A stretch of 64,000 nucleotides of DNA, taken from Escherichia phage 121/2022-2B. Of the stretch, positions 23,065 to 27,413 are shown piece by piece. The position numbers were made by a program, and so were the translations under genes. The notes under the pieces were generated by a model that saw nothing but the letters and a program-made list of their open reading frames with translations, did not search any database and had not been told where the DNA came from. The stretch lies in the sequence record OR958571.1. One strand, written 5' to 3'. The stretch's first letter is position 1. Every line of letters starts with the position of its first letter.

Positions 23065-23454
23065 TTAATCCAAAATATTATTAGGCATTGGTTGAACACT
23101 CACAAGTTCTTTAAAGAACTCAGTAGAGTCAGGCAATTTAACCATTTCCGGAGCATGCTTACTGAATTTATGTTTACATTGACGGCATTTATATTCAAGC
23201 TCTGGTTTACGCCAGTTAATCAATTGAACTTGTTCAGTACCGCATTCAGGGCAATTAGGAACGTTTTTAGAAGCTCTTTCACGTCGTTCAACTATAGCCA
23301 TAATAGCATCCCATGCTGGAGGTTTAAAATCTAAATCGTCGCAGCCGTGAATCTTTCCACGCATTTCCATATCATCTTCCTCACCAGCCATAATAATTTT
23401 AATTAAACTGGAATTACTTGAAGCTGCAATGTCTTCTAATAAACGCTTTTTCAT
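23065..23454 (-). CDS. hypothetical zinc-ribbon protein
   Basis: ORF track 129 aa; CPECG...CRQCKH. Confidence 0.5.
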
Positions 23455-24377
23455 TTCAATACCTCAATAGCATTACGTAAACCATTTGCTTTGGCGGTTA
23501 AAGCCTTAAGAACTTTAGTATGCTCTTCAATCTGTTTTTCAACTTCAATCAAACGGGCACTGAGATATTCGCGTTCTTCTTTCATAGTATCATTTCCATG
23601 ATTGGATTTTGGTGTAGGTTTAAATTCACTAGGGTCCTTTAATTTAATAACAAATTTAGTTTCAAACAGCGAAAGACCATAATTCGTATTATCATCAAAG
23701 GATTTGACTACATCCATATCAGATAATAACACGCGTAAATTATAAGCCAAAGAACTAATAGTTTCATTGTGTTTATTAGCTTCGCGTGGTTTCATATACG
23801 GAAGATTTTTATATATCTCGTGCGGAGCACAAATGATAATTGACAATTCAAATTGCCCATTCTGGGACGATGGAGTGAATTTAGCCGTAACCCAGTCTTT
23901 TACATTCACATTAATAGTACGGTTATCACCATGACAAAACAGTCTACGAGAATGCTTAAAAAGCATATTCACGTTATTATTGAATTCGTGTGAAAATTCA
24001 CTAGCAAATTTTTCTTTACTATCTTTAGAAAACCATTCTTCTAAATAAGTTCTTTTCACGTCGTTAATAATATTAAATGTAACAACACTAGCATTTGATA
24101 CATTAGTCTCAATGTAGCTTGGATACATAAATTTTTTAACATTATTAACAGCTATCACAGAAGATAGTAATCGGGAACGTTTGAACCACTCGAGCAAAGA
24201 ACCAAGAGAATGTGAATACGCATTTTGTGTATCTTTACAAATATGGTTTTCCCATCCAATATAGTCTAAAAAATCACGAAGAATATTATTGATTACTGCT
24301 CTGTGTCCTATCTGATAATTACGATGTTTAGTAATAAGACTGTCAAAATAATCAATATAATGTTTACGAGTTTTCAT
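23451..24377 (-). CDS. hypothetical protein, paralogue family member 1 (C-terminal coiled coil)
   Basis: ORF track 308 aa; shares an SRLLS motif and a coiled-coil tail with the next genes. Confidence 0.5.
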   Translation of the reverse strand: MKTRKHYIDYFDSLITKHRNYQIGHRAVINNILRDFLDYIGWENHICKDTQNAYSHSLGSLLEWFKRSRLLSSVIAVNNVKKFMYPSYIETNVSNASVVTFNIINDVKRTYLEEWFSKDSKEKFASEFSHEFNNNVNMLFKHSRRLFCHGDNRTINVNVKDWVTAKFTPSSQNGQFELSIIICAPHEIYKNLPYMKPREANKHNETISSLAYNLRVLLSDMDVVKSFDDNTNYGLSLFETKFVIKLKDPSEFKPTPKSNHGNDTMKEEREYLSARLIEVEKQIEEHTKVLKALTAKANGLRNAIEVLK

Positions 24378-24429
24378 GTTCTTCTCACTTGGTTAATGAT
24401 TTATACTCCGAGCCATCCTTGGCTTTAAA

Positions 24430-25431
24430 TTACTTAATTAACTGTAAAGCTTGTTCCAGACGATCAAGACGATTAACAGATTCTTCCCAAATCCTTTTAG
24501 CCTGCTCATATTCTTTCTGCGCTTTATTAGAAATTTCTAGAACTTCTTTATAAGCTTTTTCTAGTGCAATAACTTCTGGACGAATTTCTATCGGTTCAGG
24601 TGAATCATCAAGACATTCCATTAGTTCCTCAAGGGTAGTTTCTTCTTTAGGAGTATTCACAATTTCATCACATTTTTGTTGGTAAATTTCTTTATCAGTA
24701 GGTGAATAAGCACATTTCACTTCACGAAGGCTAATTACGAGTTTATATCCTTCCCAACCGCATATATTCTTAAAAGGATATGTATGAATATTTTCTACTG
24801 TTTCCATACAAAGTAATGCGGTCTCTAATTGACGAGTTATAGTGCTAGCAATTGAGAAAAATTTATTAATATTCTTTTGGTTAGTTTCTGGTGTAAAAAA
24901 TCCATAATTCACAAAAATAGATACTTTATTTTTATCAAGTTCATATTCTTTTATGATAATCATATCAGAAGCCAAAGGATGAATTTGACGATAATCGCCA
25001 TAACATAATTTAGAAGCTGATTTTAGAATTTGTTTCTTAAAAAGTCTGAAATTACTGATCCAACGACGAGTAAAAATATTCTCAGGGTCTTCTTTAATAT
25101 TAAGATGATAAGAATTAACATCACCGAACCAATTGTATCCTACTACATCTTTAGTTCGTTTAATTTCTTTCCCAAAATTACCAAGAATATCCCGATTAAC
25201 CAAATATGAAAGAAGACGAGACTCTTTAAAGGTTTTCTTGATAACATCTTTATCTACACGGCTAGAAATTTTACGAATTTCATGAATAAATTTAGTAGAA
25301 GAAACAATACTTGCATCAACACTATTGAGCCATTGATTGATAATAGAAAGAACGCTATTTTGGCCAAACATCGGTATAGCTTTATCATCAATAACGCTAT
25401 TGAATGATTTGATATATTCGTTACGAGTCAT
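24430..25431 (-). CDS. hypothetical protein, paralogue family member 2
   Basis: ORF track starts at TTG 25482; ATG at 25431 (MTRNEYIKSF) follows GAGGAG; motif RLFKKQILKSASKL. Confidence 0.5.
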   Translation of the reverse strand: MTRNEYIKSFNSVIDDKAIPMFGQNSVLSIINQWLNSVDASIVSSTKFIHEIRKISSRVDKDVIKKTFKESRLLSYLVNRDILGNFGKEIKRTKDVVGYNWFGDVNSYHLNIKEDPENIFTRRWISNFRLFKKQILKSASKLCYGDYRQIHPLASDMIIIKEYELDKNKVSIFVNYGFFTPETNQKNINKFFSIASTITRQLETALLCMETVENIHTYPFKNICGWEGYKLVISLREVKCAYSPTDKEIYQQKCDEIVNTPKEETTLEELMECLDDSPEPIEIRPEVIALEKAYKEVLEISNKAQKEYEQAKRIWEESVNRLDRLEQALQLIK

Positions 25432-25488
25432 AATAATCTCCTCAGTAGAAAGTAAAAACATTATACCACATCCTTGTGGCAAAGTAAA

Positions 25489-26514
25489 CTAGTTCAGTGC
25501 ATTTAGTGCATTGTTCAGTTTAGAACGTTGCTTTGTCAGATTTTGAACCCTTGACTGAGCTTGTTCTAACGCCTTTTCAACTTCTAGCACTTCATTGGTC
25601 GCTTTAACGAGTTCATCATCTACTGCCTTAAGAGACTTCTCAATCGCGTCAGCGTGCCATTTTTCTACAGGTTTAAAATTTGAATTTTCAGTAGGAAGAA
25701 AACTCACTTTATTAAGTTTACATGCATCTATATTGCTTGAGCTATACATCCAAAATTTAGGATCGTTTGATAAGTAATTGGATAAATTTAAATTTAAGGT
25801 ATCTTGCACTTCCTGCTTTTTCTCTTGAACAATTTCATCCTTTCTCAAAAATTCATATTTAAATGAAACGATCATATCAAGTTCATATGTTGTTGTATGT
25901 TCCCAATTTCGCTCAAAACGAGGTAAAATCTTAGATTGAACAGCAGCAACAACATCCATATACTTAAATGCTTCTGTCAGCTGTGATTTAAGACATTCAC
26001 AAATTGAAAGAGAATTTTTAGTATTAGGCTTAAAGCTAATTCGTGCAGTTCTGTTATTTTCTTTTAATGGTCTTACTTCCATCTGAAGAGTATAACCATC
26101 AAATTTCAGGTTCTTTAAGTTAATGTCAGAACCTTTTAATCGACTAGCCGTCGACAAAATTTGCTTTAATTGTCTACGGAACAGAGCAATAAATCTCCAT
26201 TCAATACGATAATGATTTGGATTGAAAAATCCAGATGATAAATCGACCTTACTTTGACCAACGCCTTGAACAAATAGAGGATTTTTATAATCAATAGTTT
26301 TACAGAAATCGGTGAGCTGCTCACGAGCCGTCATTTGTGTAATATACCCCGCTTTACTAAAATGACGTAACCATTCACTGCTATTCATATATTTAAAGTG
26401 AATATCACGATTAACTTTATCAGGGTCTAAATTATTTTGGCACAAAAATGTCATAACATCACGAGTATAGCTGGCATTACGAACCATATCTTCAATTTGA
26501 GAACGAGTTTTCAT
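25489..26514 (-). CDS. hypothetical protein, paralogue family member 3
   Basis: ORF track 341 aa; motif ALFRRQLKQILSTASRL; coiled-coil tail. Confidence 0.5.
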   Translation of the reverse strand: MKTRSQIEDMVRNASYTRDVMTFLCQNNLDPDKVNRDIHFKYMNSSEWLRHFSKAGYITQMTAREQLTDFCKTIDYKNPLFVQGVGQSKVDLSSGFFNPNHYRIEWRFIALFRRQLKQILSTASRLKGSDINLKNLKFDGYTLQMEVRPLKENNRTARISFKPNTKNSLSICECLKSQLTEAFKYMDVVAAVQSKILPRFERNWEHTTTYELDMIVSFKYEFLRKDEIVQEKKQEVQDTLNLNLSNYLSNDPKFWMYSSSNIDACKLNKVSFLPTENSNFKPVEKWHADAIEKSLKAVDDELVKATNEVLEVEKALEQAQSRVQNLTKQRSKLNNALNALN

Positions 26515-26522
26515 GGTGTTCC

Positions 26523-27413
26523 TTAAGATTTAAGTAAATCGACAATTTTAATTAACTTTTCACGCTCAGATTTAGCTTTACTACTCAGTCCAGATAGTCT
26601 GAAAATTTCATCATCATATTGTTGAATAGAAATATTCAGCTCTTCAATCTGTTTATTAAAATAATCAATTTGTTCAGAATGTTTTTCGTTACTACGAACT
26701 GGTACAGGTTTCGTAGGCAATGTAGTTGAACTGGATTCATCCGGGCGATAAATTAAAATACAACTTGAACCAATAGGGCATTTTGCACCAGATGAATATT
26801 CTAATGTTCCAGCTTCTTTTAAAACTTCAAAAGCTAAACAGAGATGATGCCCCATATTAACATAATCTGCAGAGTGAGCTCTGATATAATAATCATCGCC
26901 ACGAATACTAAATTTAAAGCATTTAAGGTCTTCTGTATTATTGGTCTTAAAAATCATTTGTTTATCTAGACCTTTAGCTAATCGAGCGCCTAATGCTAAT
27001 AATCGTCTTTGATTTTCCCACAAATCCGCAATCATTTGATCGAATGATAATTTTGGCATCAGTCGACCGTAAAGGTCATATCCTTTATTATAATTACGAA
27101 GGATTTCACTCGCGTTAATACGAGACAATGCTCCAATTTTATTAAGGGCTTTCATAATGCGATTAGATAAACTCATTCCAGATCCGTTTGTTCGCTGCAA
27201 ATGTTTTTCTAATCCAAATCCAATATCAACTTTAAACTTATCTAAAATTTCTGCATGAACATCTCTGTCGATAACATTCAAATCCAAAGTTGAGTTAAAT
27301 CTATGAAAAAATTTATCTGGCTCTGCACTGCGAAATACAGTCCATTCATTCATCATTTTTTTATTAACTAAAGATTTAATTACTGCATTGACATTATTAA
27401 TTACTACTGACAT
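26523..27413 (-). CDS. hypothetical protein, paralogue family member 4
   Basis: ORF track starts at TTG 27434; ATG at 27413 follows GAGGAA; coiled-coil tail. Confidence 0.5.
   Translation of the reverse strand: MSVVINNVNAVIKSLVNKKMMNEWTVFRSAEPDKFFHRFNSTLDLNVIDRDVHAEILDKFKVDIGFGLEKHLQRTNGSGMSLSNRIMKALNKIGALSRINASEILRNYNKGYDLYGRLMPKLSFDQMIADLWENQRRLLALGARLAKGLDKQMIFKTNNTEDLKCFKFSIRGDDYYIRAHSADYVNMGHHLCLAFEVLKEAGTLEYSSGAKCPIGSSCILIYRPDESSSTTLPTKPVPVRSNEKHSEQIDYFNKQIEELNISIQQYDDEIFRLSGLSSKAKSEREKLIKIVDLLKS

Follow-up and report, generated by a model that had tools for sequence, protein, structure and literature searches.

Four tandem genes of Escherichia phage 121/2022-2B (sequence record OR958571.1), lying on the minus strand of the 64,000-nucleotide stretch analysed here as one window, are the counterparts of nrdC.3, nrdC.4, nrdC.5 and nrdC.6 of phage T4 and are best read, on balance, as a divergent, non-essential, early accessory block that encodes non-enzymatic inhibitors of different host immune proteins. 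Comparison of family profiles makes it very probable that nrdC.3, nrdC.4 and nrdC.5 are homologous, and predicted structures make it likely that nrdC.6 belongs to the same fold superfamily as the other members of the array. Neutralisation of a host immune protein has been demonstrated for T4 nrdC.5, which acts against the SIR2 NADase Dsr1, and we infer a comparable role for nrdC.3, nrdC.4 and nrdC.6.

The window comes from a Tequatrovirus of the T4/T2 type, and the assignment of the four open reading frames (ORFs) as orthologues of T4 nrdC.3 to nrdC.6, with gene names taken from the T4 reference annotation, is virtually beyond doubt. The 3.98-kb interval carrying them shares 98% DNA identity with Escherichia phage vB_EcoM_JB75 and matched 506 T-even-like phage records, while full-length orthologues of the individual genes were found in 530-740 phage records. 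Each protein is covered over its full length by a known family: nrdC.3 and nrdC.4 match phrog_1435 (expectation value, E, 6e-101 over residues 2-308 and 6e-168 over residues 1-333, respectively), nrdC.5 matches Pfam DUF7235 (PF23882; E 5e-116, 387.9 bits where the cut-off is 30, all 307 positions of the model covered), and nrdC.6 matches phrog_2257 (E 2e-151, residues 1-296). The Pfam family PF26897 (Phage_T4_Y04OP), in which the newer Pfam joins nrdC.3 and nrdC.4, is present on all nrdC.4 homologues, and PF26899 (Phage_T4_Y05B) is carried by all 105 homologues of nrdC.6. Apart from these phage families, searches of the array proteins against Pfam, NCBIfam, PADLOC and the PDB matched no known domain and no solved structure. 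The hidden Markov models of PADLOC-DB and NCBIfam gave nothing above cut-off for the four proteins, the best being BrxC (E 0.007) on the helical tail of nrdC.4 only, and the sole sequence matches of the nrdC.5 family profile in the PDB were keratin and myosin coiled coils (residues 268-331, E 0.15-0.3). A HMMER profile of the joint nrdC.3 and nrdC.4 family, run against 1.84 billion representative proteins, returned no more than 9 clusters, none of them linking to nrdC.5 or nrdC.6.

Plain pairwise comparison of the four proteins gives little: the best BLASTP match, between nrdC.3 and nrdC.4, reaches 23% identity over 173 residues (E 0.002), and the remaining pairs yield a tail-only match (nrdC.3-nrdC.5) or none. 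Intermediate sequences and profiles reach further. A Gaprivervirus NrdC.4-like protein bridges the first pair, with E 1.5e-8 to nrdC.3 and 48% identity to nrdC.4. Family alignments were built from 225 database homologues and the syntenic loci of T4, fPS-65, RB69, VR26, ATK48, PSD2001, VIPECOOM03 and O157 typing phage 3; compared with HHalign, they join nrdC.3 to nrdC.4 with a probability of 98% (E 8e-14) and nrdC.4 to nrdC.5 with 86% (E 5e-6), the latter collinearly (nrdC.4 66-326 with nrdC.5 50-327). When the last 50 residues were removed, the values were 98% (E 4e-14) and 78% (E 2e-5), and 12 reversed profiles used as controls all gave E of at least 0.14. A second profile-profile run with independently curated alignments placed nrdC.3 plus nrdC.4 against nrdC.5 at 89.2% (E 2.2e-6, 230 collinear columns), or 74-78% for the core only; compared directly, nrdC.3 and nrdC.5 reach 21% once a chimeric sequence has been removed. 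That chimera, P0056, had entered the nrdC.3 alignment and produced an out-of-register match between nrdC.3 1-137 and nrdC.5 145-271 (97%, E 1e-11), which was rejected as an artefact; a screen of all family alignments for further chimeras found none.

The shared motifs from which a reading of the sequence alone had proposed serial duplication fall into place in these alignments. SRLLS, common to the first two proteins, lies at nrdC.3 68-72 and nrdC.4 71-75 within the aligned block, and the motifs RLFKKQILKSASKL and ALFRRQLKQILSTASRL of the second and third proteins are in register by profile-profile alignment, FRLFKKQILKSASKL of nrdC.4 standing opposite FIALFRRQLKQILSTASRL of nrdC.5; an upstream helix is likewise in register (SRLLSYLVNRDILGNFGKE with AGYITQMTAREQLTDFCKT). 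On this profile evidence, nrdC.3 and nrdC.4 are certainly paralogues and nrdC.5 is probably a remote paralogue of both. Duplication of all four genes, as originally proposed, is thus firm for the first pair and probable for nrdC.5, but nrdC.6, at E 0.004-0.06, lacks significant sequence similarity to the others. The notion that the resemblance of the four proteins reflects low-complexity coiled-coil composition and chance motifs only, to which the weak BLASTP scores would lend some colour, is barely credible: the similarity is not confined to the coiled coil, since the tail-less alignments of nrdC.3, nrdC.4 and nrdC.5 are still significant and far from the reversed controls, intermediate sequences connect nrdC.3 with nrdC.4, and the common motifs are located in the body rather than the tail. 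These alignments refute this explanation, which the sequence-only reading had set as the test of its own claim, for nrdC.3, nrdC.4 and nrdC.5; it is formally open for nrdC.6 only.

For nrdC.6 the evidence comes from predicted structures. AlphaFold2 models, which cover nrdC.4 (mean predicted local distance difference test score, pLDDT, 83.3; predicted template modelling score, pTM, 0.68) and nrdC.6 (78.6 and 0.65) and were compared by the order of their elements, show about ten secondary-structure elements in the same order and spacing after a variable N-terminus. In nrdC.4 and nrdC.6, respectively, these comprise two helices (61-84 and 82-107), small strands (88-110 and 108-118, the latter as single residues), three helices (119-148 and 124-152), a beta hairpin (158-174 and 166-179), a long helix (185-208 and 182-200), a second hairpin (212-235 and 205-222), a low-confidence linker (250-284 and 228-242) and a terminal helix (285-332, and 243-272 plus 278-295). 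Foldseek searches of BFVD returned 18 significant matches for nrdC.4 and 9 for nrdC.6, all of them uncharacterized proteins of T4-like phages with 280-380 residues. Seven targets are common to both queries (IME523 A0A7G3KGN9, PM2 A0A0A0PZG4, Acj9 E5EPQ6, Acj61 E5E4A2, Cronus A0A2S1GM98, fHe-Yen9-01 A0A1V0DXL6 and Mineola A0A2Z4QAR2), with E 1e-7 to 2e-4 for nrdC.4 and 3e-7 to 1.3e-3 for nrdC.6 in full-length alignments of 309-391 columns, and they make up seven of the eight nrdC.6 matches outside its own family (E up to 1.3e-3). For calibration, nrdC.4 matches its proven homologue nrdC.3 of fPS-65 with E 2.6e-7, a value comparable to those of the common targets. Below the significance threshold, the best profile alignments of nrdC.6 recur on two helices, 92-111 (KIGALSRINASEILRNYNKG) and 131-150 (LWENQRRLLALGARLAKGLD), which pair with nrdC.4 70-89 and 128-146, the two motifs of nrdC.4 and nrdC.5. 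On these models nrdC.6 probably shares the fold by descent.

A common build emerges from sequence and predictions, with an alpha/beta body of 230-290 residues in which no enzymatic domain is recognised, a disordered acidic or proline-rich linker of 20-50 residues and a C-terminal amphipathic helix (coiled coil) of 45-55 residues. The heptad-rich tails that the sequence-only reading ascribed to all four proteins are strongly borne out in nrdC.3 and nrdC.5 and moderately in nrdC.6, where the tail helix is broken at 273-277 (SGLSS), but not significantly in nrdC.4, for which AlphaFold2 predicts a continuous 48-residue helix; the underlying test is crude, comparing the share of L, I, V and M at heptad positions a and d with 2000 shuffles, the criterion being hydrophobic heptad periodicity along a terminal helix no shorter than 28 residues. 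In every orthologue group the tail is better conserved than the body (tail against body identity: nrdC.3, 73-80% and 54-60%; nrdC.4, 61-65% and 40-46%; nrdC.5, 33-44% and 25-31%; nrdC.6, 61-65% and 27-43%). The tail is thus a module under constraint and specific to each paralogue, while the body evolves faster. When the last 50 or 75 residues were compared alone, only nrdC.3 and nrdC.5 aligned, weakly and end to end (E 1e-4 to 6e-4).

The functional anchor of the array is nrdC.5. Srikant et al. (2022, eLife, PMC9391042) showed that a T4 clone in which a deletion takes in nrdC.5 is unable to plate on ECOR17, or on MG1655 equipped with the dsr1 gene of ECOR17, and that plasmid-borne nrdC.5 rescues its plating; the extent of this "evo 3" deletion is not stated in the text of that paper. 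The tetratricopeptide repeat (TPR) sensor of Dsr1 is reported to recognise phage major capsid proteins (2026 preprint, PMC12803255). In HIDEN-SEQ transposon screens, T4 nrdC.3-nrdC.6 and their Bas37 orthologues bas37_0198 to bas37_0201 are non-essential on K-12, nrdC.1 proved to be a Septu inhibitor and bas37_0203 a Druantia III inhibitor. By its coordinates bas37_0203 is the orthologue of nrdC.8, which lies two positions beyond the array, and gp49.2, an inhibitor of OLD, is encoded a few genes to the other side in T4. Because these neighbours and nrdC.5 counter Septu, Druantia III, OLD and Dsr1, the array lies in a dense anti-defence island. The helical C-terminus of nrdC.8 and the anti-Druantia III activity of its orthologue made it a candidate member of the array family, and it was rejected when HHalign showed no profile similarity. 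The placement of the genes in an accessory region agrees with their non-essentiality and the variability of the locus, and the earlier guess of an anti-defence role holds for nrdC.5, whose T4 orthologue overcomes Dsr1, but is a matter of inference for nrdC.3, nrdC.4 and nrdC.6. We consider it slightly more probable than otherwise that at least one further member of the array is an anti-defence factor.

Several results weigh against the view of the block as one family of inhibitors. Genus-level sub-profiles strengthened no link, the nrdC.4-nrdC.5 signal dropping to E 0.0075 and nrdC.6 staying at background. HHalign comparisons of nrdC.6 with nrdC.3, nrdC.4, nrdC.5 or the joint nrdC.3 and nrdC.4 profile never exceeded 8% probability (E 0.004-0.27), the Foldseek template modelling scores to the common targets are only 0.35-0.51, the BFVD match lists of nrdC.4 and nrdC.6 each lack the other's family, and the fold comparison covers two of the four proteins. 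The tails, with nrdC.3 and nrdC.5 as a weak exception, are not demonstrably homologous across paralogues by sequence, and a tail may have been gained on separate occasions. Finally, none of the strong conditional hits followed up by HIDEN-SEQ on clinical isolates is nrdC.3, nrdC.4 or nrdC.6.

Part of this would be explained if nrdC.6 were an unrelated look-alike of similar size with a coiled-coil tail, the array then consisting of three paralogues and one other gene; the low profile scores and the absence of each protein's family from the other's Foldseek list are as expected in that case, and both Pfam and PHROGs hold nrdC.6 as a separate family. We regard this as unlikely, given the matching order and spacing of elements in the two models, the full-length matches that nrdC.6 shares with nrdC.4, the repeated pairing of the same two helices in the best sub-threshold alignments, and the fact that the nrdC.6 orthologue adjoins other array members in T4, RB69, VR26, ATK48 and PSD2001. 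An alternative of similarly low probability accepts the common ancestry and holds that nrdC.5 alone counters defence, the other proteins serving host-takeover tasks (metabolism, nucleoid or envelope) or being dispensable relics. It accords with the fact that only nrdC.5 has a published phenotype, with the absence of nrdC.3, nrdC.4 and nrdC.6 from the strong hits of the HIDEN-SEQ host panel, with the viability of natural phages in which parts of the array are deleted, and with the rows examined for these three genes in the HIDEN-SEQ tables, where depletion is not significant (q = 0.8-1.0). Against it stand the proven anti-defence genes nrdC.1, nrdC.5, nrdC.8 and 49.2 that flank them, the divergence of nrdC.3, which resembles the allele replacement typical of host-interaction genes, the small size of the host panels so far and the maintenance of full-length genes in hundreds of genomes.

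Under the preferred reading of the array as a set of distinct immune inhibitors, each paralogue would engage its own host immune protein stoichiometrically, as a non-enzymatic inhibitor or decoy, and the targets would differ between paralogues. Target specificity would come from the fast-evolving body, and the slower-evolving tail would mediate oligomerisation, avidity or contact with a conserved partner. This division of labour between body and tail is put forward tentatively. Alternatively, the four proteins might assemble through their tails into a single hetero-oligomeric machine, as could be argued from their terminal amphipathic helices, their adjacency on the early-gene strand, the stronger constraint on tails than on bodies and the end-to-end alignment of the nrdC.3 and nrdC.5 tails (E 6e-4). 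Such an assembly is improbable: plasmid-borne nrdC.5 alone rescued the T4 deletion mutant on Dsr1 cells (with the reservation on deletion extent mentioned above), arrays of 2, 3 or 4 members or with single members deleted are common, and the tails are paralogue-specific and mostly dissimilar. A wider form of the independent-inhibitor reading, which we hold with as much reserve as the body-and-tail mechanism, would unite the array with its Straboviridae fold relatives (Acj61 p120 and p121 and the PM2, IME523, Mineola and Cronus proteins) in one modular counter-defence superfamily with a diversifying body on a conserved coiled-coil stalk, each copy directed at a different immune sensor. In that case the array would serve as a recombining, multivalent cassette against host immunity, with nrdC.5 and Dsr1 as the first identified pair and nrdC.3, nrdC.4 and nrdC.6 as inhibitors of other defence systems.

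Comparison of the locus across related phages, which the sequence-only reading had suggested as a check, reveals variation in both copy number and sequence. Four array members are present in Tequatrovirus, three in Mosigvirus (RB69, ATK48, O157 typing phage 3) and in Gaprivervirus (VR26, PSD2001), and two in the Acinetobacter phage Acj61 (Twarogvirinae), where p120 and p121, corresponding to the Foldseek matches E5E4A1 and E5E4A2, lie adjacent between nrdC and nrdC.10 and both carry heptad tails. The connection of p120 and p121 to the four families is structural only, sequence comparison giving no link (E at least 0.018). Since a fold-alike pair occupies this position in so distant a phage, tandem copies between nrdC and nrdC.10 appear to be old, and the joint nrdC.3 and nrdC.4 family, tiny by sequence, is by fold spread across Straboviridae. 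Phage vB_EcoM_ACG-C40 (locus L009, 5802-6213) has naturally lost a stretch that starts about 20% into nrdC.5, includes all of nrdC.4 and reaches the last 15% of nrdC.3, while its nrdC.6 is intact. The natural chimera P0056 (locus L011, 4001-4900; locus L012, 2362-3261) joins nrdC.5 145-271 to nrdC.3 137-308 out of structural register, and the metagenomic T4-like contigs that encode it also contain a 115-residue N-terminal fragment of nrdC.5 and lack nrdC.4. Among otherwise similar Tequatroviruses, nrdC.3 forms a local island of divergence, where nucleotide identity is 72% compared with 91-98% on either side. Across the phage collection its protein falls into two identity classes, one of about 137 records with at least 90% and one of about 500 with about 55-62%. 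The array probably arose by an old tandem duplication and has since diverged, genes having been lost, alleles replaced and chimeras formed, and the four proteins would form one very divergent group restricted to Straboviridae. Within the same loci, the Gaprivervirus arrays contain an extra 71-residue ORF between the nrdC.6 and nrdC.5 homologues (VR26, L004 7886-8101; PSD2001, L006 2011-2226). The Acj61 locus (L010) includes a further annotated tandem pair at 9028-11322, p076 and p077, of 372 residues each, p077 being described as "putative copy of Acj61p076", as well as, at 1229-3938, genes annotated as nicotinamide phosphoribosyl transferase and ribose-phosphate pyrophosphokinase.

The array belongs to the accessory region that extends from nrdC to nrdC.11 and is flanked by nrdD, endonuclease VII, pin, nrdC, nrdC.1 and nrdC.2 on one side and by nrdC.7 to nrdC.11 on the other (Table 1). 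The coordinates given for the four ORFs by the sequence-only reading, which left the strand unstated, proved exact, and their ATG starts are supported by Shine-Dalgarno sequences, found before nrdC.3, nrdC.4 (GAGGAG) and nrdC.6. Upstream of nrdC.4, a T4 early-promoter-like site has the sequence GTTTACTTTGCCACAAGGATGTGGTATAAT, after which come GAGGAG and the ATG, and the annotation of phage fPS-65 places an early promoter at the equivalent spot; the start at 25431 is right because longer TTG or ATG extensions would begin upstream of or inside the promoter.

Table 1. Coordinates of the array genes, their tails and neighbouring features in the window
Feature	Position	Strand	Size or residues	Remarks
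nrdC.3 orthologue (ORF A)	23451..24377	-	308 aa	92% identity to T4 NrdC.3; Shine-Dalgarno GAGAAG before ATG
nrdC.3 heptad tail	23454..23588	-	residues ~264-308	L/I/V/M fraction at a/d 0.75; 1/2000 shuffles
nrdC.4 orthologue (ORF B)	24430..25431	-	333 aa	99% identity to T4 NrdC.4
nrdC.4 long terminal helix	24433..24579	-	residues 285-333	AlphaFold2 single helix 285-332; a/d 0.42, heptad test not significant
T4 early-promoter-like site upstream of nrdC.4	25460..25488	-		GTTTAC, 17-nt spacer, TGgTATAAT (TTTACT-17-TATAAT with TG)
nrdC.5 orthologue (ORF C)	25489..26514	-	341 aa	92% identity to T4 NrdC.5; matching genomic position
nrdC.5 heptad tail	25492..25641	-	~last 50 residues	L/I/V/M fraction at a/d 0.75; 1/2000 shuffles
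nrdC.6 orthologue (ORF D)	26523..27413	-	296 aa	96% identity to T4 NrdC.6 over residues 1-259
nrdC.6 two-helix tail	26526..26687	-	residues 243-296	AlphaFold2 helices 243-272, 278-295; a/d 0.67, 43/2000 shuffles
nrdC.8	27884..28411	-	175 aa	98.9% identity to T4 nrdC.8
nrdC.2	23065..23454	-	129 aa	CxxC...CxxC zinc-ribbon signature
Segment in place of 49.2/49.3	22065..22560	-		contains the two ORFs below
ORF	22170..22340	-	56 aa	"antitoxin" label in fPS-65
ORF	22343..22558	-	71 aa	
pin	21565..22047	-		
ORF just downstream of pin	21349..21525	-	58 aa	C-terminal IRQYKRLHRMFYNT

Some further observations concern individual genes of the region. The T4 reference record (NC_000866; locus L002, 9990-10894) differs from window 26523-26700 by a 1-nt deletion in the tail-coding region of nrdC.6 (GAGCTG-ATATT against GAGCTGAATATT), which yields a 275-residue product without coiled coil, the rest of the tail being intact in the +1 frame; since nrdC.6 has its complete 891 nt in the T4 annotation on which HIDEN-SEQ relied, the deletion is taken as a strain difference or a record error. 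The nrdC.2 protein has a longer and different C-terminus compared with the 104-residue T4 protein, 73% of the gene being alignable at the DNA level. T4 genes 49.2, encoding the OLD inhibitor, and 49.3 have no homologue in the present phage, in which two small ORFs stand in their place. The 58-residue ORF next to pin ends in a sequence with 72% identity over 18 residues to the C-terminus of Pin (IRQYKRLHQMFYNT), and looks like a short duplication of the pin 3' end.

The genes themselves, the function of nrdC.5 and the pairing of nrdC.3 with nrdC.4 in databases are already known. The present analysis adds, in a modest way, a profile link to nrdC.5, a link by fold to nrdC.6 as well as to tandem genes at the syntenic position in distant Straboviridae, the pattern of conserved tail and variable body, and the nomination of nrdC.3, nrdC.4 and nrdC.6 as candidate inhibitors. 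T4 is the best-studied phage, yet these three genes are without a known function. Searching the literature for the locus tags and the DUF name yielded nothing further. If nrdC.3, nrdC.4 and nrdC.6 share fold and ancestry with the Dsr1 antagonist nrdC.5, their location in the island would make them high-priority anti-defence candidates. The combination of a variable body with a conserved coiled-coil tail suggests a design principle in which inhibitors diversify by tandem duplication, and the same build may offer a structural handle on the mode of Dsr1 inhibition. Moreover, presence or absence of the genes and the allele type at the locus may assist in predicting host range for therapeutic phages of the T-even group.

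With regard to known families and systems, nrdC.3 and nrdC.4 of this phage are members of Pfam PF26897 and PHROG 1435, which contain T4 NrdC.3 and NrdC.4 and already treat them as one family; both exclude nrdC.5 and nrdC.6, and the links proposed here to those two genes exceed the current classification. The nrdC.5 gene product is the orthologue of the anti-Dsr1 factor T4 NrdC.5, with 92% identity and a full-length DUF7235, whereas the demonstrated activity, against ECOR17 Dsr1, is that of the T4 allele, from which the present allele differs at about 8% of residues. DSAD1, the DSR2 inhibitor of phage SPbeta (PMC10981675, PMC11087589), resembles nrdC.5 by analogy only, no sequence or fold similarity between the array proteins and DSAD1 having been found; both are phage proteins that counteract a defence-associated sirtuin NADase, and in neither is an enzymatic domain recognised. 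The anti-defence proteins nrdC.1, nrdC.8/bas37_0203 and gp49.2, together with tifA, dmd and adfA, which act against toxin-antitoxin systems, are unrelated in sequence to the array, and none forms a family of tandem paralogues built of body, linker and coiled coil; like the array members, they are small or medium-sized, early, non-essential and clustered, each being directed at one host system.

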